A stretch of 60,076 nt of DNA, counting the filler, from Sphacelaria rigidula (lineage: Eukaryota), in assembly GCA_964200075.2 (NCBI GenBank). It is 8 parts of 8 records of this genome, joined end to end, with 100 filler letters (N's around TTAATTAATTAA, not from the genome) between each part and the next. Parts side by side here need not be neighbours in the genome. Positions count along the whole stretch, not along the records: positions 1 to 7,422 come from CAXNAA020014991.1; 7 more parts are not named here. One strand, written 5' to 3'. The notes below the pieces were generated by a model. That model was not told the origin of the DNA and made no database searches. It saw nothing but the letters and a program-made list of their open reading frames with translations. A program made the translations under genes and the position numbers. Below are positions 1,794-25,338 of this stretch, piece after piece. The first letter of the stretch is position 1; each line of letters starts with the position of its first letter.

Positions 1794-2187
1794 TGTTAGA
1801 CTTCTTTGCTGGAAGAGGGGTGTAGATGGTAGTGTCAGAGGGTGGCTCTCGCTTGCCCAAGGGACGCTCAAGCCATCATCGTCTGTGCCATATACAAATT
1901 CACACTCATACCTGACCATCTCTGAACAGACCTGCAGTCTTGGGTCTTACAACACCCTCATTGCAAATATAAAGCCGGATTCATCAACGGGTCTGAGGCG
2001 GCATGATAACAGACTAATATGCGTCCTCATGACACTAACCCACCTAGACGAACCTTTATTGCAGCTGCGGGGATCTATCCTCAAAGCAGCGAAAACCGAG
2101 GTTTTTCTTTACCCGTAAATTCACGAGCGGCTCATAAAGCATACCTAAGGAAACACTCCCTTACCCAACACTCCCGTACCCACTTCC
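1794..2187 (-). repeat. Putative polypurine tract (2171-2187) and 3' LTR (about 1794-2170)
   Basis: Minus strand GGAAGTGGGTACGGGAG directly followed by TGTTGG; a matching TGTT on the plus strand at 1794 is a guess for the far end; no second LTR to compare. Confidence 0.45.
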
Positions 2188-2340
2188 ACACCTCAAAAGA
2201 AGTGAAGCATAGACTTCTTCGAGGAGCAGAAAAACTGCTCCGAAACGCGGAAGCATAAACTGCTTCTGCGTGCTAGCGATCAACGAAGAAGCACACATTG
2301 CTTCGGCGTCCCAGCAAACGTTAGGGGGGGAAAACAGGGA

Positions 2341-2468
2341 GGTACAACAGGGAGCAGAGCTGTAACCTGGGGGAAGCCAAAGGTACAACCGGGAGCAGAA
2401 CTTCAACCTGGGGAAATCCAAAGGTACAACAGGGAGCAGAGCTTCAACGTGGGGGAATCCAAAGGTGC
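2341..2468. repeat. 41-bp tandem repeat x3 in the retrotransposon 3' UTR
   Basis: GGT(A/G)CA unit starts at 2341, 2382, 2423, 2464. Confidence 0.9.
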
Positions 2469-2708
2469 AGAAACAATGCAAGATCAGAAATCTGAAAATC
2501 GGTAATCCAACGAGATCGAGCGCCAGCCGCAAGGGGATACTATAGCTCCAGCAGTCGAGATGGAGGTCATCTTCAGTAATTCTTCGATCGTCGTCCGATG
2601 TAGGTCGCCCTGTTGTGATGTCGTAGACGAGGGTCCTGGTAGAGAAGGGAGGGCAAACAATGCCACAGAAAAATGGGGGGGGCAGCAGTTGCGACGAAGG
2701 AGCGTGGT

Positions 2709-4930
2709 TCAAAGCGGGGTGTGGACGTCGTGGGTGTGGTCGATGTTGCGCTGGAGACCGCGGCGAAGTTCTTTGGACTTAACGCGCTGGAGGCACCAAG
2801 ATCCGCGTGGTGCAGATAGGCTGGTGGTGTATAGTGCTGGTCGAAGCTTGAGCTGAATGGGTCCAGGGTCATCGATGAAGCGCACGATGTATGTGTCGGC
2901 CGAAACCAGGTTAGCGGAGTGGGTCTGACCCAACCACCAGAGGTTGTCGCTGCCTTTGAACCAAAGGTAGCTGCCCTTGGGCAGTATTTGCTGGTTTGCG
3001 AAGAACTTCGTCTTACAAGTCTTGGTGGGTACAACTTCGTAACCATCGGCGACGACGCGGAGTCCCTGATCGCGGTGAAGTTCGCGGGCTGCTGCGCCAC
3101 GACGCATGTTGCGATATTTCTTGTTGTGAGCAAGATGTTGATGTTGGGATTGCGTCCAGTACAGAAGGATTGCACGGCGGTGCAATTGAAGGTCGGATTC
3201 GCGTTCCCAAGACACTCTCCGGAGACCGTGCCAGTGTGTCTTATACATGACAGTAATTTTGCCACCTCGACCACGGGTTATCTGGTGGCCGGAGATGGTG
3301 GACACGGTCAATCGGAGGGGCTGTTCCATCACGTCGTCGGAGGTAACGTGGTAGGGCGGAGACTTGGTGGAGTAGCTGTTGAGAACATACTGTGTGAGTC
3401 CGGCAGGCAGGTACTTAGGCATGTCACTTGTATCATGCGGGTTCGTGTAGGGTTGCATCTGTGCACGGAAACGCGGGGTTTGGTGTCCTAGCCCTGGAAG
3501 TCACGAGGCAAGTCGAGATAGAGTAGTTTGTCACCAACGGGTTTATCATCCGGTGATGATGACGATGGTCCGGCTGTCAGGATCTCGAATGGTCCTGCCT
3601 AACTGAGGGGAAACTTTGTCTTCAAAATTGTTTCGTTGGCAGCCTTGCTGGTGCCTTGGCGGATGGTGGACAAACTGTTGTAGATATAAACCCAATCACC
3701 AACTTTCCAGTTAGGGCGTTTGCGCATGAGGTTGTAGAGAGCAGTGTTAGATCTCTCTAGGCGCGAGGCGTTGATAGCGTGCTGTTCGTGCATGAGGGTA
3801 AACGCTTTGCGTTGTCGTGCATGCGCTAGCTCGTGGTAGGATACCTGATCCAATCCTTGGTGGCCGTCGAACGTGTGGCGCTCAAACACGGTGATGGGCA
3901 GCCGAGGGTAACGTCCAAGATGGAATTCGTTCGGAGAAAGGCCTGTTGCGGCGTTAACCGAGTTGTTGTAGGGCAACATGATGTGCGAGAGATGTAGGTC
4001 CCAGTCATTTTGGCGGTCATTGACAACCGTAGAGAGCATTTGGGCTATGGTGTGATTAACGGTGCCACCGTTACCGTTCGGGTGGTAGGCGCTCGTGGCA
4101 ATTTTGCGGATGCCCAGGAGCTTGTAAAGCTCATCAGAGAGATCTGATCAAAATTGCTTACCATTGCCTGAAAGGAGTCGCTTTGGGCAACCGTAGTGCT
4201 TAATGTAATCGTGGATCAATGTGTCGGCCGTTCCGGCGGCAGTGAAATCTGCGGTGGTTACCGCGTACATGGACGCGTGGCGGGTGAAGCGGTCAGTGAA
4301 GAATAAGATGTAGGTGTTGCCGCGACCTGTGGTCGGTAGAGGGCCAAAGTAGTCAAAGGACACAAGGTGGCCGGGCTCGTCGGGGAGTCCCATAGGGATG
4401 ACGGGCCAGCGTACTGTCTGTCGTGGAGTCTTTCGAGCTTAGCATTTGAAGCATCGCCGGATCCAGAAGCGGATGGCAATTTTCATGCCAACCCACCAGT
4501 AGAAGCGTTCCAAGAGCGCTAGGGTGCGGGTGGCGCCAAGGTGACATGACAAGTCTGTGTGGCAGCCTGTTATGACCCAGGGGCTCATTAATAATGGGGC
4601 ATATATGCGCGTTGGTTCGTCATCGAGTAGTCGTGCGTGGCGTCCCGTGGTTGAGGCGGCAATTGCGCCCGTCAAAGGCGTGGGGCGACGCACGAGTAGT
4701 TGCACACTTTCATCCGTAGTAAAAAGGGTACCTTTACGCACGAGCTCGTATACGTCAAAAATAAGTGGTGGTGACAGTGTGCCAACCGGGGCCAGGAGTG
4801 TGGATGGAAAAGGGACTGGACACTCGAGTTGTAAGTACCGGATGGCTGCGCGACATAGCGGTTCTGCGTTTTGTTCGCGAGCCCAATCCTGGTGAGAGTA
4901 GCTAGCGAGAAACTCGCGTAGTTAGCCTTC
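2709..4930 (-). pseudogene. Integrase: HHCC zinc finger, DDE core, GPF/Y module, chromodomain and an extra C-terminal domain
   Basis: CHTDLSCHLG..FYWW..CFKC; VSFDYFGPLP..FTDRFTR; YHPNGNG; WDLHLSHI..YNNSVNAATGLSP; WKVGDWV..GPFEI; YKTHWHG..SWERESDL. Confidence 0.9.
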
Positions 4931-5694
4931 CGCTGGCGAGCCGACCAAACATTGTGGGGCAGGCGGCGAGAGAATAGACGACGGGGCAGAGATGCCGACG
5001 TCGATATCTATCCCGGAAGCAGGAGCTAAGTCGTCAGCTCCGTGCTCGGGAGGGATGGATCTTGGCGGCGCCGTTATGGGTGGCGCCGCTGTATCAGTGC
5101 GCGGCGAAGATTGTTCGTGGCGCGTGGTGCACGTTGCAGAAATTTTCGCGGGGCGTTGCGTGCTGGTCCGTGGAACGTGTGCTGCGTGGCTCGTGGAATT
5201 TGTAGGTGTTATCGGTGGCGGCAGGGCACTCGGGGTAGTGCGGGCGGCAAACCGGGAGCGCGTGTTGTCGGAGATTAGGTGGGTGACTGTAGGTGTCTCC
5301 GCGAAGAGCTTCGCGCGAGTACCGAAAGTGCGGAAATCGACGAAATCAGAAGTAGTGGGCTTTAACCCACCCAAGACGGCGTCATATGGTAGAGGGCGAG
5401 GTCCTCCCATATGCATACCGGTTCTCGGGCACTGGAGGTCGAGGACGTAAACGGGTGTGTTGAAAAACGTCTCTGACAGCAAAAACGCACGGCGGATGAT
5501 CCGCCGGTGAGTCAGATGTCTCACCAGAGAAGGGGGTGGACGGTATATTTTTTTCAGGTGTGGCACAGTCAGAGTGACCATTGGCGATTTGGTCAATGAT
5601 CGTCTTTGGTTGACAGGGATCACCGTCCAAGAGGGATCCAGATTGTGCGGGGCTGGAGTCGTCGATTGAGGAAGTAGTGCCGTCAGAATAATTC

Positions 5695-7422
5695 TCCATT
5701 TCGGGTGTGAAGGAAAACACGGCTCCTTTCTTGAGTACCTCGGTAAGGGGGCGAATCCGTTTAGATAAATTCGGCAAAAATTGCGGTAGTAGGATAGCCC
5801 GCCCAACAATCAGCGAAGTTGAGAAATAATGTTAGTTGGCATCGGCAAGTCAGTCATCGTCTTGACTTTGTTTGTATCCGGATGCAGGCCTGCTGGCGAA
5901 ACGGAATTACCCAAGAAATCCAAGTTAGCCGCACCAAGGCGAGCTTTGGATGGAGACAGTTTCAAATCGTGCGTGCGTAGGCGAGAGAGAAATTCTCGTA
6001 GAGTGCGGATATGTGCAATAGGTGAGGCATCGAAAGCGATAGCGTCATCCAGGTACACGATGATGTGCTCGAGGCCGTCGGTGACGCGTTGCATTAAGCG
6101 TTGAAAGCATCCCGGGGCAGTGGCGGCGCCTTGTGGCATTCGAAGCCACTCACATAGAGCCCGGACGAGGTACAATAAGCCGTCAATGGGACTGTGTCAG
6201 GGTGTATAGCATTCTGAAAAAATCCAGAAGCGAGGTCGAATGTGCTGAATATGTTTCCTTCGCCTAAGGAGTCGGAGACTTCATCAATGCGGGGAATTGG
6301 GAGTTTACGGACTACAGTGACGCGGTTTAACCGTTGATAGTTCACCGTTATGCGTATGTTTCCATCTTTTTGGGGGACCACCACAACAAGGGGCGAGGCC
6401 CAAGGAGAGGAGGAATGTTGTATTAATCCCGCCCCCAAATATGCATTCAAGGTGGCGTTAACCTTCTTGGTAAGGATTGGGTTTGTCCGGTGTGGCCGAG
6501 AAGAAATCGGCGAGACGCCGGGTTGGAGGGTAACCTCGAAGGGCAGCGTTTTGCAATGCCCAAGATCCGTCTTGAGTCGGGAAAATCGGTCTTGGTACTG
6601 TAGCAGGACATCACTGAATTCTCGGATGACTGCTGGTTCCCAGCCGGGCCCATGAAGGTCAAAATTGATGTCGCGTATGTGTGGCGGCAGTTGGTTCCAC
6701 ATGTGCAAGAAACTCTTCCGAGAATCTGGTGATAAGCGTTGAAGCACGTCAGCAGGAGGATCGGAATTTGACTGGGCAGGATCCACGGTGTGGACCTGGG
6801 GTGGAATCGCGGAGGCGAGGTCGAAATAGGGTTCATCGACACAGTGGACTGACTCCGCCGGAGATTTGGGGTTTGGAGCGACAGGTGCTGTTACGCACGT
6901 CTCGAGTGGGATGTGCATCAGGGGAGCAGCGGCGATTCCTAAAACATCGCCGGGTTCCAAGTTAGCATGACCCGTAAGAGGGAGGAGTTGTTGTCCCGCC
7001 GTGAAAAAATGTTCTGTGTCGGCTGGTGCGCCAATACGGGGTAACATTTCGGCAAGATAATAGCCCGTAAGTGCTGGCATGCCATTTCGGCGAACTAGTG
7101 CAACTTCGAGAAGTTGAGGGTCGTCGGAGAGTGTAATACCAATGCTACCGTTGTATCGTAGGTGGTAAGCAGCTCCGGTTGCTTGAGTATTCTTCTGGTA
7201 GGCCAGGGCGCCGTGGAGAGTACCAAAGTGCTCGAAGTTGAATTCTCCACGAGGCGTGGAATGTGGCGATAGTGGTGGAAGCGTGCGGTAGGTGCGTTTA
7301 ATAAACCGCATATAGCTATCTCTGCCCAATAATATGGCGTGGTGCATTGTGCTATCGGGGACAATGTACGCTGTTACGCTAGCAGGTTTGCTAGTACTGC
7401 AGCGTCTAAATGCTGTTGAGGG
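5695..7422 (-). pseudogene. pol: pol: end of aspartic protease plus reverse transcriptase (frameshifted)
   Basis: ILLGRD; SSPWASPLVVV..KDGNIRITVNYQRLN; FDLASGFFQ; RMPQG; VYLDD; FLG; LLGGLSYYRNF; LTEVLKKGAVFSFT. Confidence 0.93.
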
Positions 7423-7522
7423 NNNNNNNNNNNNNNNNNNNNNNNNNNNNNNNNNNNNNNNNNNNNTTAATTAATTAANNNNNNNNNNNNNNNNNNNNNN
7501 NNNNNNNNNNNNNNNNNNNNNN
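7423..7522. other. Artificial contig linker (same linker at 14945-15044, 22467-22566, 29989-30088, 37511-37610, 45033-45132, 52555-52654)
   Basis: 44 N + TTAATTAATTAA (stops in all six frames) + 44 N; 8 x 7422 + 7 x 100 = 60076. Confidence 0.98.
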
Positions 7523-8440
7523 GGAAGTGGCGGTGCCAGGAAATGAAGCAACTCACCGTAGGCTGTCATCCAAATGCAAGATAATCAGTAGACTTGGGAC
7601 CGAACAATCTTAGCAGGATGCAGCTCACCCTTCATGCGGCTCGCCGAATACACCACGGCGCTCCGCTCTTGGTGATTGAGTGCGAGCCTGGTCCGGCGAA
7701 AACCCGGCGTGCTCCGTCCCGGCTTTGTAGGGAATCGAGGCCAATGGTCATCTGACTATGGCGTGCATGATCATGAGTACATTCCCCTCCCCCCCCGCGC
7801 GCACCCTTCTAATGCGAGATGACTCATGTGAAATTAACGGAGTAATCGTCGCGCCACATACGACTAATCGTTTTGAGTGCAAGTACGCGAGGTCTTTTAC
7901 GTCAGTAGTGTTGGTATCATGCAGGCCGAGAATAATGAAAGATTAGTGTCCGCGATGACCTGCCTGCCAAAATGGACACAGCCGATCATCCCCATTCTCG
8001 GCACTGAAAAAGGCTCCAACGCTTCTGGCGAAAGACTGCAGCATTAAAAAAAATGGCGTGCCGAGGTCTTTCTTCCTCTCCGCATGGTTGTTTTTGTCTC
8101 CCACCGAACTCTGTCCGGTAGTGGGCGTCCGTTGAAGACATCAGGGCAATTGTTACTGCCTTCACAACTGGATTAATAGAGGTCAGTCATTCATTCAACC
8201 AATCTGCGAGTGGCAACTGGTCTGCTTGGCACCGACCAAAAACTCGCTGTTTTAGCTCTGCGTTTCGCACACGTCACTCGATCAGTTTGCGGCTTGTAAG
8301 CCCGACATGGTGCACACGTGTGTCTCGCTATGATGAGCGTCTTTTTTCTTTTTTCTCATTTCTGGCCTGATCATTATCCACCACTTTTTCGGCCGTACCG
8401 TCATATTCTATGGTACAAGATACTATATCTCGGAATATTT

Positions 8441-9883
8441 CAAGGGCAGGTCGAGTAGAGTATACTCAATACTCAGAATTTGCGAAGAGTCATACTTTTA
8501 GTACTCAAATTTTGAGTAGAGTATCTGAGGTCTTACTCAATCTACTCAATTGTTTGAGTAACGTATGTTAGGCCGTACTCAATCTACTCAAAATTTGAGT
8601 AGAGTATTTGAAGTCATACTCAAGTGATACGCTATACTCGAGTATTACTGAGAGTGCTTACTCAATATTTGAGTAGAGTATTTGAGGTCGTACTCGATCT
8701 ACTCAGAATTCGAGCAGAGTATTTGAGGCCGTACTCGACCTACTCAAATTTTGAGTAGAGTATTGGAGGTCACACCCCAGTGATACGCTATACTCAAGTA
8801 TTACTGACGGTGCTCACTCAAGATTTGAGTATTTGAGGTCGTACTCGATTTCCTCAATTTGTTTAGTAGAGTCTTTGAGGCCGTACCCAATCTACCCGAA
8901 AGTTTGGTAGAGTATCTGAGGCGGACCCGATGTACCGAAAACCTATAACCTCAACTTCAGTATTCAAGTTCGCACGCAAGATACTCAAACTCGGGTAGAG
9001 GAAATACCGAGGTATTCCCAGAGTTGCCTACCTATGATTAGTGCTGATTCAAGATCAAACTTCAGCGAACATTCGGATACAGTGTATTCGAGAAAGCATT
9101 TGGATCAGAACCAAATGGTACGAATCTAGGGTAGAATGAATATTGGGGGATTATCGAAGGGTATTCGGATTGTACCGTAAACTTGCTGTACGGCGCCAGT
9201 ATATCGAAGGCGCCGCGAGGCATTGAGTATGTACTGCCGTGGGTGGGGGCTGGCAAGATGGGGCGCTGGGGCAGGTAGGTTCACTGACCACTTACCTGCA
9301 CGCTTTTTTACCTTTTTCATGGCCATCATTCGCTTATACTCCGTGTAACCTGCAATGTAACGCCACCCATCTAATTGATGGTCATCGTTCGCCCATGTAT
9401 GCAACATAGCCTGTGAAATGACGTCACGAAGTCGCCGACGGTCACGGATACTCACCATACCCAAGTGATACTCCACACTCAAGTAATATTGGGAGTGCTC
9501 GCTCAAGATGTGAGTAGAGTATTGAAGGTCGTACTCGATCTACTCAAAGTTTGAGTAGAGTGTTTGAGGGCATACTCAATCTGTTCAGAATTTGAGCGGA
9601 GTATTTGAGGCCGTACTCGACCTACTCAAAATTTGAGTAGAGTATTGAGTATTGAGTATTGAGTATTGAGGTCATACTCAAGTGACACTCTTTACTCAGG
9701 TTCTGCTAAGAGTGAGTGCTTACTCAATATTTTAGGAGAGTATTTGAGGTCGTACTCGATCTCCTCAAACTTTGAGTAGAGTATTTGAGGCCGTACCCCA
9801 CCTACTCAAACTTTGAGTGGAGTAAATACTCGAGTATTTTACTCGAGTACCCAAAAGTACGTAGTCTACTCGACCCGCCCTTG
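8441..9883. mobile_element. Non-autonomous TIR element (hAT- or P-type) with satellite-like GAGTA/TACTC arms
   Basis: TIR CAAGGGC(A/G)GGTCGAGTAG at both ends; perfect 8-bp TSD GAATATTT at 8433-8440 and 9884-9891; about 41-bp degenerate units in both arms. Confidence 0.92.
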
Positions 9884-9905
9884 GAATATTTCCTTCTGTA
9901 GAAAC

Positions 9906-10200
9906 GGCGCCCCGGTGGTGTAATGGTACAACTGACTCCTTTAGGGTGAGAAAAACGCGGGTTCGACTGCCGCCAGATGTATCTAGTTTTGGCCTTTTTC
10001 TCGGCAAGGACATGATTTCTGGCGTTGAACGCGTGACGATATGAGTAGCAGAAACAGTCTGCTTGGGTGAGTTTGTTTCGATGACAGTCTACGCAGTGGG
10101 GGAGTACTGATCCAAAGAGTCCGCGAGACCAAAAATGCGAGGCGTGTTCCGGGGGAGAGATTGATCCATTGAGGCCACGAACCAGTCCCGAGGAAGGGGA
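9906..10200 (+). mobile_element. SINE family 2 (tRNA-like head), 3' truncated
   Basis: A-box TGGTGTAATGG, B-box-like GGTTCGACTGC; body colinear with 54728-55150. Confidence 0.7.
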
Positions 10201-10219
10201 GAGTGGTGCCGCGATAGCC

Positions 10220-10816
10220 CCCACCCCGCGCTCCCAAAACCAGCCCCCACAACTGTCACGGAGAACATGGTCATGCGTGTGTGTTGTAGTCCCATTTATT
10301 ATGGACGCCGGTCTACACCTGTCGGTATATGTGGACGCACCAGCCGGGGTCACACAGGAGGAAGGTCAATACAGGAGTTTATTTTATTTTATTTGTTTTT
10401 AGTTCCCCACCTTTCTTCTGCAGTGCTTGCATTTTTTATTTCTTCTATCGCGAGAGGGGTTCAGCAGTCCCTTTCCATTGTCGGCCGTAAAGTCGAATTT
10501 TGTGTACCCACGACATCGTCGCTCTCCACTGTTGGGCATGGTGTGAGAAAAAAACCCATATCGCTCCGAGAATGGAACCCACGACCAAACCGTCAGCAAA
10601 CCGTGAGAAGGTTTCGAGGTTACCAACTAAGCCACCGGGGCGACCGGTTCGTCATACAACGCATGATAGCTAGCGTCAGACTGCATAAAGCACTACATAT
10701 GGGCGACATTGGCGAAAACGATCCCAAGCGTGGGAATTCCCAGCTGCTTGACGTGCTCGGCTGTTGTCGTTTTTATTTTCATGTAGATTTTGCCTCCTCA
10801 AACCAGTCGCTTTTTT
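10220..10816. repeat. Dispersed repeat of about 210 bp (homolog 45205-45416) interrupted by a SINE1 insertion
   Basis: AAACCAGCCCC...CAGACTGCAT...GAAAACGATCCCAAGCGTGGGA...GATTTTGCCTCC shared; uninterrupted at 45205. Confidence 0.8.
10275..10650 (-). mobile_element. SINE family 1, full length
   Basis: tRNA-like head (TGGCTTAGTTGG, GGTTCCATTCT), (CA)n-type tail, TSD GTCAT at 10270-10274 and 10651-10655. Confidence 0.88.
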
Positions 10817-10920
10817 GGGGGGTGGGGTGGGGGGGGGGCAAACTCATTTGTTGCTTGCCCTAGACGTTTGACCATTGACCACGCATCCGTATCGAGACGT
10901 AGCGCCGGTCCCAACCTAAT
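10817..10920 (-). mobile_element. Poly(C)-tailed short retroposon copy
   Basis: G-run followed by ACTCATTTGTTGCTTGCC..TTTGACCATTGACCACGCATCC. Confidence 0.75.
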
Positions 10921-11963
10921 AAGAGACACCTTCAATATTTCGGTGATCATGACGTTTCTTGCGTACATTACGTGAGAACCTTTTACATACCTTATCCCCG
11001 TCCTGCTTCGCCGCCTGTGGCCACCATCTATGCCATTTGTTTTGGTGAGGGAAATATCGCGTCATTCGAGAGGAGGTAAAAGTGAGAACAAGCAAAAAAA
11101 ATGGCATCATGACATTGATGAGGATTATTGTACGTGAGAGATCGTGCGAGGGTTTGTTAAGAATCAAATCACAACGTAGCCCGCCTCTCGTACGAAGGTT
11201 TGTGTTATGTCACCCTCATGTCAGCTGGTCATATTTTGCGTTCATTACCCTCGCTTCGTGATCATCCTATTCTTCTCATCACTCGACGGCATTTGACTTT
11301 TTGCGTTTCTTGTGCATGCCGTACAGGCGGTGAACGACGACACTTGCTCGACAACGCCGTTCGCAGTTGCTCACTTGTTTTCCACGCACTCGTCAAAGTC
11401 AAGCCGACTCCTTTCCGCATTTTTGCGCCATCAATTTTCCGCCTCAGGGTGATCTTTGTTCCATTTTTTTCTTCTTGTCAGACAACATGTAGAAAATGCC
11501 ATAACTCTTTTTCTCGTCATCGTTATCCCGTTCGGTTCCATTGGTTTCTTCTCCTGGCACAACGATATAAAGGCTGCGCATCATGACGTACGTGGGCACG
11601 ATGCTGCTGGCCAACGTTCCTTGGGAAGATCATTTTTATACGGCGTTGTAATTTCGTTACTTTCGTTCCCTCTTTCCACCGGTTTCACGTATCCATGTGT
11701 GTGTGTGCGTGCGTTTTCTCCTGCTCTAGGCCATGTCTATGTCATATACTAAACCATGCACCACACCATACACCACGTATGCACTTCACCCTATACTTCG
11801 CAATGTACTTGACCCCATACTTTGGCGGGCCATATGCCACACAATATCTCATATTATATACTCTGCGATACACGCACAACACACACCATATTTGTTTACC
11901 ACATACTATGAATTATACTCTCAAATATACCATGTACTATCAAATACACTGTATCATGTACAG

Positions 11964-12353
11964 GTGGCACACGACGACGTAAGCACGGTCGTACTCACCA
12001 ACGATGCCATGCGAGACCATCGGAATTTCATGCCCAGCGAGCGCCACTTCAGGCGCTGGAAACAGGGCCACATGGTGCGATTCTCGTTCACCTGGGGGCC
12101 GGAGGGAACGCATCCATGGCTGGCCAAGTGGAAGGCCGACTCCGATGCGTCCGAGCAGGATCAGGCGAGCGATCTGGACAAATTCGCGCATCTCAAGCCT
12201 CCCGAGATCACCTTGACGTCTGGCCTTGGGTGGGGGGAGGTGCAGAGGTCGGGGGATCACTGGCATCTTCCCGTTCGACTAAGGTACGCGTCAAGCTCTT
12301 GGGTGCAGAACCCCCTCGAATGGACCCCGGGTGGGACCGTTAAGAATGTGTGA
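11964..12353 (+). CDS. PRORP: Protein-only RNase P (PRORP), C-terminal NYN-domain exon; may instead end at the donor AAG|GTACG after 12283
   Basis: Acceptor CAG at 11961-11963; VVLTNDAMRDH...FRRWKQGHMVRF...PP...Q.SGDHWHLPV matches PRORP motifs (TNDxMRDH, RWKxxH, WHxP); upstream exons not found. Confidence 0.85.
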   Translation: MAHDDVSTVVLTNDAMRDHRNFMPSERHFRRWKQGHMVRFSFTWGPEGTHPWLAKWKADSDASEQDQASDLDKFAHLKPPEITLTSGLGWGEVQRSGDHWHLPVRLRYASSSWVQNPLEWTPGGTVKNV

Positions 12354-14779
12354 AGAGCTGTTGCCTGGGTTAGGGGTTGGGAAACTATGGCATACACTGT
12401 TTGGTGTTGTTGGGGGTGGGGTTTTCAACCGGAAGGAGTTCCTCCGGTGTAACGTCGGGGTTGCCGGTGTTGAGAGTCAGCCGGTGATATTGTTCCGAAA
12501 TGATGCCTGGCGCCCGAGGGATAAATCTGATTGTTGGATTCACATTTTTTTTTTCTGTAACAGCTGGTGCTTCGAAAATAAAACTTTTTGTGTTTTGTTG
12601 CTTTTGATTATTTCGACTCAGATTGACATCTTCATTCTGCTGTATAATCCCACGTTCTGCTGTATACTCCGTTGGTCGAGGAGCGAAATTGCGAAGTCTC
12701 CCGCTTACGATCATCCTCGACGCACACAGTTTTCTCATCGCTGGGACGTGTGAAGTCGCGTCTTGGTTTCTCTTGTGCTGTACTGCTGAGAGCGTTTTTT
12801 TTTGAGACACGGAGAAGAACCGCAAAGGCTGAAAAAATAGCAATACTACCGCTAAAGATTGACCCGTAAGATTATGCTTGAACACGCATTTGAATCGCAA
12901 GTGAAGGTCAGCACGACTGCAACGGTGGTGCGGGCTTGTATCATGTATAAGCTATTGTTGAGTATCACTTGTACGACGGCTTCCGCCAAGACTCTTGCAT
13001 TGCTTAGTGCAACTTGTTGAAGATAGTAAACGCGCTTCTCCCGTCAAAATATATGCGTCTTTCCGGAGTGTTCTACATGCCCATTTATCAGTCAGTCGTG
13101 TTTACTGACCAAGCAGGCAATATGAAAACTGTCGTGGTGATAGCGCAACCTCCGGTGCTTCTCGTAGTAAATATACGCAGGTGAGCGCATTTTATTTTCG
13201 TTCGGGTATGAGTGAATGCGCTTCTTGCGCAAAACGTCCTCCATCTACACCCATGTTGCGGAGGCTGCCCATATCTGTTTCTTACTTGTTTTCATTGTTT
13301 TTTGTTGCTGTCTTTTTAGCAAACTCTGTATTTTTATCTCTTTTTGTTGTGTCTTCATATTTTCGTCAACTTTCTTCGGCGAGCGTTCCCGTGTTGTCCA
13401 CCTTGGGTCCGTCTGTCTCGTGGATAATGACCACGGCTGGATCATGACTACCTCGGGGATCTGTCAATGTGCGACAATCGATCAATCAAATGCATGTTTT
13501 CTCAAGAACATCGACGTGTCCCATTTTTGATGCAAAGCTGAGCACATGCCAAGCCTCTCCACTACGATATCCATGTAATATCACTACGTTCCTCCGCATG
13601 CACCTGAAGTCTATGCCCCCATTCCCCCGCCACGCCACGCAAGCGCCGATCCTTCCGATGCCCCTCCTTCTCCTACAACTATCACTACCGTCGAACCTGC
13701 CGCCTGCAGTGACTCCGACGACACACGGAAGAAGCACCGACTGCGAGAAGCGAAGGACAGAGTCCACATCACCGCCGCACCTGGAGAAGACAGGAAAAAA
13801 TGGCTGTGCGTGCCCGTGCCTAAATCCCGAAAATCTGCCGAAGTGGAAGATTCTATCTCCGAGATGGTGGCAGCCGTTGGACGTGAAGAGTTCGGAAGCT
13901 CCCGCGCGGGGTTAGAACTTGAGTTGGATTCGTCCCGCGATGCCGAGAATGACGAGGACCGCCAGCATTCCTTTTCAAGAGGTGACGACGGCGATTTGAC
14001 ACATGCTCTCAAGCCATCACTCTCCGACTCTGGAAACGTTTCCACCGCACCACGTGGTTACCGGGATGATCTCGTTGTTAGCGGGGCGATTAATGCCCCG
14101 CCAATTGGTGGTATCACCCCGCACGCCGCCGATGACGCGGCGCCTGACACTAGCGATACCCCTCCTGTCGCGGGGGGATCGGGATTCAGCATCTTGCCTG
14201 GAGGGAGGGGATCCGCCAGCCGAAAACCTGGCCGGCCATTGTTGTTTTGATCTGTTTCGATGGTTGAGCTTCCGAGAGGGTCTGTGCTGCTAAGTTTGAC
14301 ACTCACGATGGCTGATAGGGATGGGTTGTATAAATGTGGTACTGAGTTACAGTAAGATGACTTTTGGAGCGCATCCGCTTCGCAGTGGTGACAGATAGCG
14401 TTGGTATGCGGAGTAGAGATTATTGTTCAATTTTTTGCTTGCGGTTGCCGTGACTACACATTTTTTCTCTGGATGGATCATAGCTAAGTTTGTAAAGCTG
14501 GAAATCTGTAGTTTTTATATGCTGGGTTCGGCACACTTTCGGGTGCTTATCGTGCTTAATCAGAATGTGTCACCGGTTTTTGCAAACAGAGTATATCGCG
14601 CACATCGTTAGTCCTCGACCAGTTCGGTCAAACAATCGCCCCCTGTGGTTTGGAGGACCGATTGTCATACAGCAGCTACCGCAGGCGATGGTGTGTTTTG
14701 TCACCGATGAAATGTGTATTGCCCGTGATTGAGAAAGATATCATACGTCGGACGAGCACGAGTGTCACTCGTGGCACTC

Positions 14780-14920: not shown

Positions 14921-17343
14921 TTCGTCGAGGGGAAAAGAGTGGATNNNNNNNNNNNNNNNNNNNNNNNNNNNNNNNNNNNNNNNNNNNNTTAATTAATTAA
15001 NNNNNNNNNNNNNNNNNNNNNNNNNNNNNNNNNNNNNNNNNNNNATAATCTGTGGAGATCGCCGTAAATTTTGTTGCACGCGGATTTTTGTTCAGCGGCC
15101 ACTCTCGAAACCTTGGAGCCAAGCAAAACTGGAAAGTGGGCTAGGGTCCTCTCTGTGGGGTGGTCCAAAGTGTTCAAGACGTGTGTTGGCGATTTTCTCT
15201 GTTTGGGGGTCAAAAAGGGGGTCAAACATCCCAAAAATGAACAATCCGTGCGGCAAAATCTGTGTGCCATAATATCCGGCCTTACTGACCAGATTGACGG
15301 AAAATCCGGCCGGGCAAAACAAAGTCCATGGGAGGGGACGAATATTAAACATCCCTTCTTTTTTTACATTTCTTGAACGGTACTAACGATGGGAGCGCGA
15401 CAAAAAAAATGGTGCCACAATACCTCCTGTAACGCCCTCAACAACAAATCGGCCTTATATTACGGATATCCTTATCGGCCTTATATTCCCGGCCAGAGGG
15501 AGTATATAGCGACCCGTACTTATGAACTCGGTGCCACTTAGAGTAACCACATTTTCAAAAACATGCTGCCATCATGCCGCTGTCACCCAAACAACTCAAA
15601 ATCAAATGGTCGAGAGGGCTAGCACTCTCCATCTCGAACAAAGCGACCCGCAATCTCTATTTCTGCCCAGAGATGATCGCGGGAACGCGGGAACAGACGT
15701 CCCTACCCGATGGCTGGAAATGCTCCGAGAATCCATGACTGCCGCCATGCATATCCAACCACGCGAGCCGTGTTGGAAGTGAGGAGGTGTCATCTCTTCC
15801 CAGCGCAGATATCGGAACGGTTTTTCGATGTGGAGACAACAATAAAATCATCGAGGTTGAGCCGAAGAAACCATTGAAACCAACGGCAGTGAAGTCTGTC
15901 GGCATCCCCGCTTCACGTCTGGGTTCATGCACTGCACCCTACCTTACCGCTGTGATGTGACCCGCGGTACATGTACACGCCTGAGCGCGATCATGACAGC
16001 AGTATCACGCTTGCGGGGCCTCCATGCAGTCCGTGCACAGATACACGAACGGGGTGGGCAACAGAGGTCCCTATATATCGTGCAAGATTCCTCGTTGAAC
16101 TGACTGCGTTGCTGATCCCAGGATCTAGGCGAACACAGCTGACTGCGCTAAGACGTAGGTTGGCACAGCACGCTTGCTGACGCGTTGCCGGAGCGAGACG
16201 GGACGTGCGCTACCGAACGCCCCGAGGGAATTTATAGTCTGCGCCATTTGTACGGTATTGCAGCACGTCGAGAACCTCACCAATTTCACCAGTGATCGAA
16301 TCTGTTACTAGAGTGCTCCTTGCCATGACTGTAACGCAGATAGCACATCTGGTACGGAATACAAAGTAGTATCAGGTCTGCATCAGCGCAAACCTAGTAC
16401 ATTGATGCCCTCCTGGTGGTGCCGACAGAGCAACAGCCAGATAAGGCCACCGTGCTGGGTGGGAAGGGAAGTATCCCAGAGACCTGGCGCACAGATGGTA
16501 TTGACTAATGTACTAATGTCTGTACCGCTTGTCTGATTCTGTTTCGAATTTTTATCTCAACGCCAAGACAGACTCAAGCACACAGATCCTCAAGGCACAC
16601 ATATGTCGAATTGCAGCATTGTCTATATCTTATCTTATCATCGCAGCATGTTGCCGAGTGCTCGGCACTACTGCCCAGTACTGCCGTACATTACCACTGC
16701 ACTGCGGTGTAGTGAACAGTCTGTTACGCCCTCCTGTTCACATGCCACTACATGCCATTTCTCGTCTGTAGGTGGAACAAACACAGCTGATCAATCGGAG
16801 AAAAAGATGAGGAATGACTGCATTCTGCACAGATGCATATACATACTGCCGAACCGCACGACATACCCACTGACATACCCACCCACACAAACACGCGGCC
16901 CACCTGCTGCACCGACTGCACGCGATCGCTGTTGAACAGGATAGTGCAATGCTGCTCGATAGCCGCCATTTTCTGCACGGCTAAGTAACCACCCCGTTCT
17001 TCCCCAGCTACCTTCCACCCTCTCCAGCTCCCCTTGTGGCTCAAGCTTCTCCCTCGTGAACCCAAGGACCACAAACAATTCCGGGCAGGTTGCCTCAACA
17101 GAACACTAGTGTTTTATCCCTCCAGAGATAGCTGAGACAACCCAGCAAAATTAGTGGAGGTAAGATTAGTGGTTATCTATCAGAGCGAAGTCTGGGTCGC
17201 TTTCCGTGCAGCTTTCCGGCTGCGCCTTGCTAGTTCTCGTTCGCGGTCCGGTTTCTAGCGCATCGAAAGTTGAAAGGGTGTTCGTGAATTATGAATAAGA
17301 ATTATGAGGCATACTTTCCCCTGAAAAAATATACATGCTACAC

Positions 17344-19459: not shown

Positions 19460-19801
19460 GTGTGTTGTCGCCCCATCTATCGTGGGCGCCGCTTTACACA
19501 TTTCGGTGTAAGTGGGCGCACCAGCTGGGGTCAAACAGGAGAAAGGCCAACACATGAGTTTTTTTTTCCTAGTTCTCCACCTTTCTTCTGCGGTGCTTGC
19601 CTTTTTTTTTTATCGCGAAAGGAGTTCAGCCGTCCCTTTACCCACGTCGACCATAAAGTCAAATTTTGTGTAACCATGACATGGTCGCTCTCCTCTGTTG
19701 GGCATTGCGTGAGAAAAAATCCCACATCGCTCCGAGAATTGAACCCACGACCCGACCGTCAGAAGGTCGAGGTTTCCAACTGAGCCACCGGAGCGATCGA
19801 T
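19460..19801 (-). mobile_element. SINE family 1, full length
   Basis: Head TGGCTCAGTTGG / GGTTCAATTCT; flanking near-repeat TGCG(A/G)TGTG at 19451-19459 and 19802-19810. Confidence 0.85.
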
Positions 19802-20773
19802 TGCGGTGTGTTGAAATCTTTGCGAAGATGGTTTGATCTCCGCTGGGACTGCTTGAGTCGCCTTTACTGTCACTGCGTTCGTCTCTACAGAAAATAAGGG
19901 GGAAAAAATAACGTTGGTCAGCACTGTAGTGCTGTCTATACACGGTTGAAACCTTCCTAGTGTGTTGGCTGTTTTGTCTCCCGTAAAACGAACAAGGCGT
20001 TTCCCACACCCATCATTTCTATGCTGTGGTTGTCGCTGTGCTGTTATGCACTTGAACAGTCGTACTGCTGCATGCCGCGTTTCGGGCTGCACAGAATTGG
20101 GGTGGGGTAGATCAAAATGCTGTCTACACAAACTTGAAACGATTACTTGGCGGCTGTGCAGCTGTCTGTTGCGTCTTCTCTGATACTTCAGTTGTAGTCG
20201 GGTGCTGTAATCGGGGAAGACACGCAAGGCGGGTGCTTGCAAGTTAGGGCAGATAAACTGAGCCAGCACGGAGCTGCCGTATCCCCAGCGATTGGTGGTG
20301 GCAGCTGTCTGACTCGCAGCGGCGCAATGTGTGGGCCAATCAGAGCTATTTGGTTACTCAATTCCCACTCGATTCTTTCATCTGATCGAAGAAAGGTCGC
20401 CGCATTTTCGTATATTGAGAGGCTCTGATTGCTCGAAAAATATTGCCAATCGAAATTCTTGACCCCATCTGTGGGCCCTGTGCCGGATCCATAGATACGG
20501 GTCAAAGTATATAACGCGTGCACTAATATTAAGATATTACATGTATCTGTCTTGCGTGTGCAACCCCGTGTGCTACTATAGAACATCGCCCCCTTTCGAA
20601 GTTATACCGTAAGCTTGTGAAAATATCATCGATATACTATCCTGGGCTGTAGCCAGCTAGCGGAGAGAAACGAAGCCCAGACTGGGCCTGTATAGAAAAG
20701 AACCCAAACATTTCAGTCTTGTTGACTTCTCTGCGGTACATGAGTCTTGCGTAGCGCACGTGTGCTCACCAAC

Positions 20774-22566: not shown

Positions 22567-22635
22567 CCCCGGCTGATGCGCCCACATATCCCGAAAGGGG
22601 TAGACTGACGCTCAGTATAAATGGGACGACAACAC
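22567..22635 (+). mobile_element. SINE family 1, 3' tail at the contig start
   Basis: CCCCGGCTG.TGCGCCCACATA...ATGGGACGACAACAC. Confidence 0.8.
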
Positions 22636-25338
22636 TCAACCCTTCAATATTCTGACAATATGCTGACTCTCTGTATACGAGCTATACAATACATGAATTA
22701 TACATTATTCTACGACGAATATCTCAGACACACTGCACTACTTCGGTTATTCCGACGATCTGTATTATAACGATGAGCCGTTACTGGTTTTACCGCTAAT
22801 TCGAATATATATGTACATTCGGCGCTGTTATTTCTCAAACTTCCAACATGTGCGTGTTCCCTCATCTTTTCCCGGCAGATAATTGCGCCGTTGTATCGTC
22901 AACTAACCGTACCTCTGCTTGACGCAAGTATACCGTGTTTCCAGGAGCTCTGGGTTCTAGTAGAGAGACAGTTGCTCTCCACACACGGCAAGTTGAACCT
23001 CGCACAGCAAGATGCATCATAGTATATCACGACAGCAGTGCCAACTAAACTGTCGATTATCCACGTTCTGTAAACACATGATGAACAGTGCATGTTGTTT
23101 CACCCATCCTGTGGTGCCTGGTTGAGCATCCAGTTTAGGGAGTGGTGCAATTTTCCGGTCGACCAAAAGCTTCCGGTTTATATGCGTTCCGTTGCATCGC
23201 GGCAGCGAGTAGTGATCGCACGGCACGGGGTTGAAGTGTGCAGCCTATTCAACCGTTTTCCCCCGAGGAGATACACCCCATTCCAGTGCCCTGTTTTTAT
23301 GGTTGATTTTTCTTGGTTTGAGGACTACACCGAGATTCGGATCCCAAGCGCCGCTGATAGGTCCTAGGGCTCCTACCACGCGCGCGTTTTTGCCTAAATC
23401 CCCCAAAGGCGTCGATCTGATGTCTGCAAACTCACGCTCTACATAGAGCTCTCCGTGCTCCCCCCTTATTACCCGATGGTTCGTTCTCGGCATGTCTAGG
23501 GCTGGGGTTAGGGCTAGGGTTGGGGTTGTTTGGAAATAGTGTCATCCATGGACGTTGCGAACAACTGGAAGGGAACCATCTCCACAGAAATGGTCTTCAG
23601 TTGACCGAAGACAGTTTCAACTCTCAGAAGTCGCTAGAAACTCCGAAAATTGCGAAGAGACCATCACCAATACGCGGTTCCAGGTTTTCGTTGATTGCTG
23701 TAGGGCCCTACAAGATTACTGACTACAAAAAAATCACTCGATTCCGACCGAGTTTCATGTGCGGCAATCTGGATAAAAGCAGTCCCGGTGATGTGATCTG
23801 TTGAGCGAGGTGATTTTCGGTTGTTGATTGGGTATTCCGAGATCGCCATGATCGACGTTTGTGCATAGTTCTCGTGATGCGTATGAAGGTGACAAATGTG
23901 GCCGGGGCACACCGACGACTACACAGGGGAAAACATTTATGGTGGCAGAATGACACGACTACGTGTGATGTGTGTGTGGCTTAGTACTATTGAAAAGCAA
24001 GACAAGCGCGATGTCGCTCTAATCAAGACCAGGATGATTGAAACGACCTCCTTGTCCCCTCCTACACATCGGTACCAAAAGTTGTGTTCGCTGTAAATGC
24101 TTGCAAGTGTGAATTAGAAGCGCCGCACAGTGTCGACATACAAGCTACCAACATAACACATCTCACGTTTCTCACAGAGTACAACAACCACGATGCCTTC
24201 ATGGGTGAGACCGGGTTTTCCGAACGGCCCCTAGGTGAGCAAAACATCGCTTGCATTAGCCACGTTCCTTCTCCGCTACACAGTGAGCCGTGCAGCCACA
24301 TAACACCGCGCTACCAGCACAAAAGTCAAGGCTCGGACGCCTCTTCAACGACGATTCCGCAGATCCAGGGGTCCTAAAATGCTGGTGATTTCGAGCCCAG
24401 ATTTGCCGAAACATTTCAGCGCAATAATTCCTCCAGTCGATATCGATCCCGGTGATATGACCAGGCTACCCAACATGACATTAGGTCATGCGATCCAACA
24501 GCAGGTAACCGGCGCGTCCGAGATGCGTTTCGGCCCCGATCGCCTCGAAAAGAAGTTGACCGCAGCAGGCTCGCTGGTTACAAGTGCAATGAATGATGGT
24601 TGCATGTTCTAGATCGAGCTGGCTTCGTTTATGCTCTTGTTCTGAAACTTCGGAGAGGAAACGTCCTGACCCGACAGGAAAAGGGACCTTGTTCCTAATT
24701 CAGCATGGCCTTTTGGTGTTTCTTGAACGGTTGCATAGCTGCGATTGTGAATCACCGCAGAAACAGAGCGGTACCGATTGCGATGCTTCAAATAACGGTA
24801 TACTGTACTGGCACAATGAATGAATACATAATCAATCGCGTATGGCACGCTGGGTCCCTCGGGGATCAATTTATGTGCAAAAAATGTTGAAGAAAAAACA
24901 ACGTGCTAATGGCGAATCAAAATCTTGCGGGAGCAGACCGTGTGTCGCGGCAGAACTTCGGCGCATTCCAAAGTGAAGTGTTTTGTTCTTACAATGACGT
25001 CGGTGGTCGGCCAAACGTACATGTTATGTCGTCTTGATTCGTGCTGAACCATGTATTACTATCCTCGATTTCTTCACTTTTCTTTCACTTCAAAGCTCGT
25101 TCAGGTGAGTAGGATACCCCGTCGGAATATGTCGTGTGCATAATTAGACCCGGACGCGGGGAGTTTGTAATGTGCCGTTTTTCGCACCAGCCCCGGCTAA
25201 ATGTTGATCCATCTCACGGGAAGAGCACCCCCCGTTTCACCACGCCAATCACTCATCTCAGCAACTTGACTTGTGCCACCGAAAAAAGGAATCTCGTAGC
25301 CCCGGCTCCCTCTCTCTCTTCGCACGCTAGAGTCAATC

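Follow-up and report, generated by a model that had tools for sequence, protein, structure and literature searches.

A brown-alga-type Ty3/Gypsy integrase with a divergent chromodomain and a predicted Tudor-like barrel in its C-terminal tail

In Gypsy elements, a chromodomain fused to the integrase is considered to target integration (PMC5348765, PMC3350952; these papers and PMC12477816 are cited throughout from the accessible part of their text). The locus described here raises the question whether a single integrase can end in two different chromatin-reader folds. The window, by which we mean the whole analysed stretch of 60,076 nucleotides from Sphacelaria rigidula (assembly GCA_964200075.2), contains at 2709-3458 an open reading frame (ORF) that a preliminary description had taken for the end of a Gypsy integrase bearing a chromodomain and, behind it, a second domain of the PWWP or Tudor type. 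Our analysis places this ORF in a decayed Ty3/Gypsy element and assigns to its product, from structure prediction and family alignments, a divergent chromodomain and a Tudor-like barrel in tandem.

The structure of the encoded protein (P0001) was predicted with AlphaFold2, using an alignment of 150 rows with 47-125 rows per column; the resulting division of the tail is listed in Table 1. For the whole tail the mean pLDDT (predicted local distance difference test score) was 82.3 and the pTM (predicted template modelling score) 0.71, and 146 residues had a pLDDT of at least 90. Residues 45-230 lie mostly above 90 and show two separate arrangements of secondary structure, three strands plus a helix at residues 52-102 and five strands at residues 164-226. 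On the models and the fold searches given below, the assignment of a chromodomain and a Tudor-like barrel is very probably correct. The claim of two Royal-family-type folds in tandem is borne out by the two-domain model and by the chromodomain and Tudor matches. The chromodomain-like block (VSTISGHQ...YKTHWHG...SWERESDL), previously placed at 3156-3311, corresponds to residues 52-90 (3189-3305), and the second block (PKGSYLWFKGSDNLWWLGQ...YIVRFIDD), previously placed at 2829-2984, to residues 160-197 (2868-2981). Both fall inside the intervals given for them, and the gap between them is 69 residues rather than about 55. The GPF module said to precede them is present (AGPFEIL) but stands in another frame, directly after a stop.

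The first domain was modelled with strands at residues 52-62, 68-76 and 83-86 and a helix at 87-102 (pLDDT 92-96), which is the three-stranded sheet with a C-terminal helix looked for in a chromodomain. Fold searches were performed with VIA-align against 48,161 chains and with Foldseek. VIA-align aligned the domain with the chromodomain of Chp1 (Z 6.9, root-mean-square deviation (rmsd) 1.7 Å, 53 of 55 residues), with Chd1 (Z 6.9, 2.0 Å, 57 residues), with HP1 (Z 6.4, 1.6 Å, 51 of 53 residues) and with Polycomb (Z 6.0, 1.9 Å, 49 of 51 residues, 29% identity). The tool warns that a Z below 8 can reflect a common arrangement; an end-to-end alignment of domains of about 56 residues points to the same fold, and homology is not thereby proven. 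At the sequence level, Pfam Chromo gave weak matches in 23 of the 150 members (best E 1.7e-4) and, among six full relatives, in two (E 0.014 with 15.8 bits and E 0.031 with 14.6 bits, the cut-off being 25.1 bits). The 150-row profile, searched against the PDB, returned eight sequences at E≤10, namely three PHF19 Tudor entries, three of MPP8, one of Swi6 and one of YedJ; the first block accounts for the MPP8 chromodomain (E 0.35-0.41, three entries) and the Swi6 chromodomain (E 1.5). YedJ, the top match of this search (E 0.0096), was discounted, as its long, gap-ridden alignment runs across the linker. The chromo-box Y-x-T-H-W-x-G is conserved in the family.

The second domain was modelled as a five-stranded barrel with strands at residues 164-168, 174-182, 189-194, 200-204 and 221-226, and a model of residues 136-232 alone gave a pLDDT of 89.4 and a pTM of 0.78. 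With this domain-only model, the top ten Foldseek rows were all PHF1 or PHF19 Tudor domains (E 0.025-0.038, probability 1.00, TMt 0.59-0.65, rmsd 1.6-2.4 Å, 44-46 columns, 22-24% identity), and the Tudor domains of TDRD3 (TMt 0.72), MTF2 and Drosophila Pcl appeared lower in the list. VIA-align paired the domain with the Tudor domains of RDM15 (Z 6.1, rmsd 2.0 Å, 56 of 58 residues) and PHF19 (Z 6.0, 2.0 Å, 56 of 57 residues), with TDRD3 (Z 5.9, 2.6 Å, 59 of 60 residues) and with Spindlin-4 (Z 6.2, 3.0 Å, 66 residues). Of the 50 VIA-align rows listed for this domain, 29 are eukaryotic Royal-family domains, as counted from the entry titles; the remaining rows are other SH3-like barrels, including R67 DHFR. 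The profile search pointed the same way, with the PHF19 Tudor at E 0.032-0.037 for the second block (three entries of one protein). Pfam searches of the individual members gave SH3_VIII-1_N in 9 of 150, Agenet in 4 (best E 0.02) and Tudor_2 in 1 (E 0.14), none above the curated threshold. The neighbours of residues 133-232 in a protein-atlas feature space were Spin/Ssty, a KIF2A-like N-terminal domain, the PTM/DIR17 Tudor, SAWADEE and an MSL3 chromo-like domain; the scores are all below 0.85 (0.77-0.81 for those other than the KIF2A-like domain), and these neighbours are taken as leads only. Overall, sequence and structure comparisons suggest that the second domain is a Tudor-like barrel, closest to the Tudor domains of the Polycomb-like (PCL) proteins PHF1 and PHF19.

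Two other searches with P0001 gave little: phmmer against the PDB found only an irrelevant coronavirus replicase fragment (E 0.9), and the viral structure library BFVD yielded no match at E≤0.001, only phage proteins at high rmsd. An origin of the second domain by internal duplication was considered and rejected. With hhalign, the barrel matched the family's own GPF/SH3 module with a probability of 1.3%, over six columns that share GP[IF]KI, and both the barrel against the chromodomain and the chromodomain against the SH3 module scored 0.1%.

The tail is a conserved part of a family of integrases. A word-indexed search of longer proteins (1131 candidates) gave 15 database proteins that match P0001 at E≤1e-3, and in 14 of them the match spans 89-99% of P0001 with 41-56% identity. 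The alignments lie at the extreme C termini of these integrase or pol proteins, which bear Pfam rve, Integrase_H2C2 and RVT_1; precomputed integrase Pfam domains were present in all but two. When phmmer was run exhaustively, 739 cluster representatives came out at E≤1e-3, of which 325 were at E≤1e-10 and 29 at E≤1e-30; most are fragments. In the alignment of P0001 with its 15 relatives, both domains are found in 14 relatives and the second domain in all 15; the relative without the chromodomain (P0016) comes from a single 2-kb contig and has probably suffered an internal deletion. Twelve of the 18 invariant columns of this 16-sequence alignment lie in the second block, at residues 162-221. Because the relatives conserve them, the two motif blocks are, as judged from the alignments, not chance. 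The second segment is both conserved and predicted to adopt an SH3-like, Tudor-type fold, as the preliminary description had anticipated. A divergent subgroup with 32-36% identity (P0061, P0075, P0142) keeps the same layout.

Mean pairwise identity among the relatives was 0.72 for the integrase core, 0.68 for the chromodomain, 0.53 for the barrel, 0.48 for the linker and 0.37 for the extreme tail. The first 46 residues, between the GPF module and the chromodomain, reach 0.66 and have the family consensus CKPCxNPHDTxDxPxYLPAGLTxYVLNxxSxKSPPYHVTxDDV with six invariant positions (P3, P7, D9, P14, L17 and P18); this segment, with its SPPYHVT motif, may be a linear docking motif. The first linker helix carries a conserved YRxMRxGAAxRELxR, in which Y115, R119, A123, R125, E126 and R129 are nearly invariant. 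The family has uninterrupted polyprotein members. The gene models of two relatives seem to be chimeras or run-ons: that of P0006 (EukProt), with a hydrophobic, transporter-like stretch at residues 1-230 ahead of the integrase, and that of P0015, with a long Pro/Leu/Ser-rich repeat at residues 230-446 after the barrel.

The copy in the window is far less well preserved than the family. Upstream of the ORF, on the minus strand, lie Ty3/Gypsy pol remnants in which Pfam recognizes RVT_1, Integrase_H2C2 and a sub-threshold rve. When P0009, a full-length relative, is used as tblastn query, pol resolves into four pieces (Table 1). Ahead of the tail there are six in-frame stops in 1218 aligned codons plus two frame changes, and the switch into the tail frame lies between 3443 and 3512. 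The RNase H segment (P0009 residues 724-976) is absent between 5603 and 5314. In the active-site region of the integrase, at about 4160-4171 (minus strand) and just downstream, the copy reads SGNG and GGTVNHT where the relatives have SDNG and GGVERVNHT, so that the DDE triad is damaged as well as the frame. Because of the stops, the frame changes, the missing RNase H and the mutated active site, the window copy is a dead, inactive relic.

The extent of this relic was determined from public contigs aligned to 2500-7400, of which two DNA runs supplied 8812 and 7949 pieces at 90-99+% identity. In both runs the summed contig depth over the tail was about that over the reverse transcriptase (RT) and the integrase, fell about ten-fold below 2664, and loose contig ends were seen at 2697 and 7368. 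The window copy is an internal fragment of roughly 2697-7368, and, since its depth matches that of RT and integrase, the tail is part of a very high-copy element and not a separate gene. The search for long terminal repeats (LTRs) of the element was negative: 1-2740 and 7300-13000 have no repeat in common except a dispersed one of 73 nt, which is also present in other pieces of the window, and no polypurine tract is evident after the tail stop. The 5' part and an LTR pair could not be found because the element-bearing piece stops at 7422. In one alga and one algae metagenome run the family is extremely abundant, as thousands of short contig pieces. Two further runs, whose RNA nature was guessed, held 167 and 231 family contig pieces with the deepest bin at 2828-2991, from which nothing was concluded. 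On either strand of 2161-3491, the only other coding candidates were three overlapping ORFs with no Pfam match.

Table 1. Coordinates of the integrase tail, of the pol remnants upstream of it and of the spacer that bounds the element-bearing piece.
Feature	Position	Strand or frame	Remarks
ORF P0001, 249 amino acids plus stop, integrase C-terminal extension	2709..3458	minus	stop-to-stop frame 2709-3500, 263 codons, 0 stops
Residues 1-46, conserved segment, predicted largely unstructured	3321..3458	minus	pLDDT 48-59; between GPF module and chromodomain
Residues 47-104, divergent chromodomain (predicted)	3147..3320	minus	AlphaFold2 model, VIA-align
Residues 105-156, linker	2991..3146	minus	helix 113-130, strand 140-142, helix 145-153; pLDDT mostly 78-96
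Residues 157-228, Tudor-like five-stranded SH3-type barrel (predicted)	2775..2990	minus	AlphaFold2, Foldseek, VIA-align
Pol piece 1 (together with piece 2: protease-proximal region and reverse transcriptase)	7380-6154	minus, frame -2	0 in-frame stops
Pol piece 2 (see piece 1)	6157-5603	minus, frame -1	1 in-frame stop
Pol piece 3 (spacer and integrase: H2C2 zinc finger, core, GPF/SH3 module)	5314-3443	minus, frame -1	5 in-frame stops
Pol piece 4 (integrase tail)	3512-2739	minus, frame -3	0 in-frame stops
Artificial spacer (N44, TTAATTAATTAA, N44)	7423..7522		end of element-bearing piece (piece ends 7422)

What might such a tail do in an intact member of the family? In our proposal, a stramenopile (brown-alga-type) Ty3/Gypsy integrase would begin with its zinc finger, catalytic core and GPF/SH3 module, and would then continue with the conserved flexible segment, the divergent chromodomain, the two-helix linker and the Tudor-like barrel. 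The chromodomain and the barrel would together form a built-in, cis-encoded chromatin tether of two parts, which would attach the intasome to chromatin in a particular state and in this way bias the choice of insertion sites. Such a tether would extend to two domains what is accepted for single integrase chromodomains and shown for that of chromoviruses (PMC5348765, PMC3350952). On balance we lean towards this function, of which both the chromatin binding and the targeting are inferred. The feature bound may be an unusual one. In Ectocarpus, H3K9me1/2/3 and H3K27me3 are reported to be absent, and H3K79me2 and H4K20me3 mark repeats (PMC12477816); because of this absence, classical HP1-type reading would be without a substrate there. 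The absence of the classical marks fits the degenerate cage of the chromodomain (see below), and interest shifts to the added barrel. A bolder version, which we put forward tentatively and rate as rather unlikely, is that the pair, adapted to a host lineage without the classical heterochromatin marks, is a self-contained bivalent reader of a non-canonical mark (H3K79me2 or H4K20me3) or of a nucleosome-surface feature and steers integration into already silenced chromatin rich in transposable elements without a host cofactor. If true, this would be the first retrotransposon integrase shown with two different Royal-family domains acting together.

Several results weigh against a pair of chromatin readers. 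P0001 alone matched no Pfam family at E≤1, and neither domain had a structural match at Z 8 or at a Foldseek E≤0.001. The classical chromodomain cage consists of Tyr24, Trp45 and Tyr48 in HP1 numbering; Tyr24 is absent, and Tyr48 usually so, in the group II chromodomains of retrotransposons, and in shadow chromodomains Trp45 alone is retained (PMC3350952). With the register set by the MPP8 alignment and the chromo-box, the equivalent of Tyr24 is L50 (L 63, V 11, I 9 and F 5 of 104 rows) and that of Tyr48 is L79 (L 86, I 14, F 6 and Y 2 of 123 rows), and only the central Trp45 is kept, as W76 (W in 101 of 119 rows). The resulting Leu50-Trp76-Leu79, against Tyr-Trp-Tyr, is a group II or shadow pattern and not a classical one. 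The cage of the barrel was mapped through an HMMER alignment to PHF19 in which the loops have equal lengths. The PHF19 Tudor cage, formed by W50, Y56, F74 and Y80, is aromatic at two of its four positions here: Y56 corresponds to W175 (W in 53 of 73 rows) and F74 to F194 (F in 52 of 71 rows), and W50 is replaced by G169 (A 28, G 25, S 15, together 68 of 85 rows) and Y80 by P200 (P in 62 of 74 rows). Conservation of the aromatic cage across the family, proposed as a check in the preliminary description, accordingly held for half of the barrel cage and for the central Trp of the chromodomain. Both cages appear incomplete from these alignments, so that neither domain would be expected to have a canonical trimethyl-lysine pocket; because the cages are degenerate, methyl-lysine reading is unproven. 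Two positions before G169, residue 167 is aromatic (Y/F) in all 16 aligned sequences, and D196 is invariant; it is our conjecture that these two residues could form a smaller pocket. In the VIA-align search with domain 2, SH3-like barrels that are not readers also scored in the range of the Tudor domains. The translocation-signal domain of TraI reached Z 6.8 (rmsd 3.8 Å), and Z values of 4.9-5.2 were obtained for KOW domains (NusG/Spt5 KOW at 4.9-5.0) and for the Tudor-like domains of UvrD/PcrA. These scores, together with that of a PWWP domain solved with single-stranded DNA (6kco; Z 6.0), and the incomplete cage would suit a barrel that binds nucleic acid or the nucleosome surface, as a second module like the integrase C-terminal domain; it would help to capture target DNA or cDNA ends and leave chromatin targeting to the chromodomain alone. 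Conserved basic residues in the barrel (K168, R193) and in the linker helix (R119, R125, R129) agree with such a role, and retroviral intasome chains occur low in the Foldseek list (probability 0.2). On the other hand, histone-reading Tudor domains give the best fit, with the highest identity and the lowest rmsd, the only near-significant sequence match is the PHF19 Tudor, and hhalign did not relate domain 2 to the GPF/SH3 module of the family. We regard a barrel of this kind as a possible but lesser explanation, and continue to favour the two-part tether.

The shadow-like cage of domain 1, with Trp45 kept and Tyr24 and Tyr48 lost (PMC3350952), also bears on the idea that the tail is a protein-protein interaction unit, either a chromoshadow-like multimeriser of the intasome or a dock for a targeting host factor. 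The HP1 chromoshadow domains tie with chromodomains at Z 6.4, and two helices follow the sheet in the model; but identity to the chromoshadow entries is 9% against 17-29% for chromodomains, no shadow family is among the 25 Pfam families listed (the Chromo family being matched in 23 of 150 members), and the profile matches are the MPP8 and Swi6 chromodomains, which makes this explanation an improbable one. The preliminary description had proposed that the second domain is a PWWP-type reader of H3K36 methylation, a built-in equivalent of the LEDGF tether. In principle, the pattern G-x-x-x-W-[YF]-K...L-W-W-L-G...V-R-F resembles the PWWP signature, the PWWP entry 6kco ties with the Tudor domains in Z, and the closest Tudor relatives (PHF1, PHF19 and MTF2) are H3K36me3 readers by their PDB entry titles. 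The helical bundle that should follow a PWWP barrel is missing, with no confident helix after strand 5: pLDDT is below 50 at residues 232-236 and 238-249, and the domain-only model ends after E86-91. Moreover, Pfam PWWP was matched by 1 of 150 members (E 0.12), no PWWP was among the Foldseek rows listed for domain 2, 6kco aligned at a worse rmsd (3.1 Å) than the Tudor domains, and the motif is L-W-W-L where PWWP domains have P-W-W-P, the residue before the WW pair being G, S or N and not aromatic. The nearest structures are the Tudor domains of PHF1, PHF19, MTF2, TDRD3 and RDM15. Membership in the PWWP family was rejected on the missing bundle and on matches that favour Tudor, and a PWWP-type tether seems to us highly unlikely. 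For the Tudor-like barrel, the best sequence and structure matches are likewise H3K36me3-reading PCL Tudor domains, and H3K36me3 specifically is an unlikely ligand in our estimate. Least likely of all, and barely credible, is a domesticated host gene in which the 249-codon frame encodes an exapted chromo-Tudor protein. The observation behind it, an intact C-terminal frame after a broken pol, is literally true (no stops against six) and yet unremarkable: at the upstream rate 1.3 stops would be expected in the 263-codon frame, the probability of none is 0.27, and the open frame is within chance expectation and not informative. Strongly conserved columns are changed in 6 of 78 cases in the tail against 26 of 174 in the integrase, a difference that is also not significant (Fisher P 0.15). 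Of 84 strongly conserved columns, P0001 differs from the family in 8, among them those of the initial CKPC motif, which is lost, the ORF beginning at an internal Met; the tail lies under the same thousands of contig pieces as RT and integrase; and all relatives are integrase tails.

Some further features of the window are recorded here for completeness. The window is a composite of eight pieces of about 7.4 kb each and not contiguous DNA. Its pieces are joined by artificial N44-TTAATTAATTAA-N44 spacers that recur every 7522 bases (after the one in Table 1, at 14945, 22467, 29989, 37511, 45033 and 52555), and an extra run of ten N's lies at 36869-36878. In the second piece, a repeat about 41 nt long, whose core is TACTCAAANTTTGAGTAGAGTAT, forms arrays within 8489-9831, in blocks at 8489-8790 and 9456-9831. 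A dispersed repeat of about 375 nt is found at 10274-10649, with copies in several pieces (45594-45953, 19460-19802 and 36400-36750, and short copies at 671-750 and 22567-22638) that are 69-82% identical, and up to 94% over the short copies. Because the window is composite, repeats common to several pieces are dispersed repeats and not LTR pairs. The ORF at 11730-12353 (plus strand) has a weak, sub-threshold Pfam match to the protein-only RNase P (PRORP) family (E 1.1e-5; 25.7 bits, with the cut-off at 39.1). A 600-codon open frame at 43282-45084 (minus strand) has no Pfam match, overlaps long open frames on the opposite strand and lies in DNA of 52-54% G+C.

Nature's clearest examples of integration targeting that an element encodes itself are fusions of a chromatin-reader domain to an integrase. 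Each of the published cases that we found has one reader, a Tudor domain in one report of 2025 and a chromodomain in the others, as far as the accessible text of these papers goes. The family of the window has a fixed tandem of a chromodomain and a Tudor-like barrel, in a lineage that the accessible literature describes with a chromodomain only. The second domain goes undetected by Pfam, and domain surveys based on Pfam would consequently miss it. The copy in the window, being a dead fragment, serves only as a pointer to the family; the idea is testable because the family is abundant in at least one alga and has uninterrupted polyproteins. The ligand of the module could point to the chromatin feature that replaces heterochromatin in brown algae, in which the canonical H3K9 and H3K27 methyl marks are reported absent.

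The family can be placed through an Ectocarpus protein. A region-restricted search with the barrel of P0009 retrieved P0168, named at NCBI 'unnamed protein product [Ectocarpus sp. CCAP 1310/34]', of 1398 amino acids and with the Pfam layout NADAR (E 1.9e-40), RVT_1, RT_RNaseH, Integrase_H2C2 and rve. Identity between P0168 and P0009 was 69% in RT-RNase H, 62% in the integrase and 58% in the tail, and that between P0168 and P0010 was 82% and 72%; P0001 is 47% identical to P0168 over residues 78-242, the whole barrel included. The NADAR domain of P0168 lies at residues 59-203. At about residues 1210-1225 of the same protein, the gene model passes over the conserved linker and strands 1 and 2 of the chromodomain (DLPSDLPG runs into LLRPSWERE), which may reflect a deletion or a mis-called intron. 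The pol of the family is closely similar to that of this NADAR-bearing element, and an N-terminal NADAR domain was not seen: P0009 and P0167 have no match to it, residues 1-201 of P0168 are unmatched in the window, whose element piece ends at 7422, and P0009 and the window element have a protease-like N terminus. On these similarities, the window family is a close relative of the published Ectocarpus NADAR-Gypsy lineage. Ectocarpus has four Gypsy lineages, of which one (Gypsy-12_Ec32) combines an N-terminal NADAR with a putative C-terminal chromodomain and a different one (Gypsy-10_Ec32) has a C-terminal Tudor and is called the first transposable element reported with such a domain; by the published RT phylogeny, the chromodomain lineages are unrelated to chromoviruses and to Chronos (PMC12477816, Genome Biol 2025). 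Literature searches gave no report of the second domain in this lineage, nor of an integrase with a chromodomain plus a Tudor domain or with a PWWP domain, the Ectocarpus paper, as far as its text was accessible, being the only relevant one; the domain is possibly visible in its alignment figure.

Compared with known systems, the tail shares features with several. The Ectocarpus NADAR-Gypsy lineage likewise has an integrase with a putative C-terminal chromodomain; the accessible text of PMC12477816 reports only the chromodomain there and assigns the Tudor to another lineage, and Gypsy-12_Ec32 could be compared by description only. The integrase of Gypsy-10_Ec32, like that of the present family, belongs to a stramenopile Gypsy element and has a Tudor-superfamily domain at its end, but (again compared by description only, from the same text) the Tudor stands alone there and here the barrel follows a chromodomain. 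Chronos of oomycetes (PMC5348765) is also a stramenopile Gypsy group and acquired its C-terminal chromodomain independently. It differs by its dual RNase H, with an added archaeal-type RNase H against a single RT_RNaseH in P0009, and no second reader domain is described there in the accessible text. A dual RNase H was not found in P0009, P0167 or P0168, where RT_RNaseH and RT_RNaseH_2 overlap on one region and nothing further appears at E≤1. Chromoviruses (MAGGY, Tf1 and the plant elements CRM, Tekay and Galadriel) have the same order of integrase, GPF module and chromodomain, and the group II chromodomains of plant elements share a cage without Tyr24 and Tyr48 (PMC3350952); they carry one reader domain, against the two predicted here. 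The Tudor domains of PHF1, PHF19 and MTF2, which gave the best profile match (E 0.03) and the best structural matches to domain 2, belong to host Polycomb accessory proteins and have a four-residue cage for H3K36me3, of which two positions are aromatic here. Finally, the likeness to the PWWP domain of LEDGF/p75 is one of concept only, a Royal-family barrel that joins an integrase to marked chromatin. LEDGF/p75 is a separate host protein, to which the lentiviral integrase binds, and its PWWP has a helical bundle, whereas in the present family a Tudor-like barrel would be fused to the integrase in cis.

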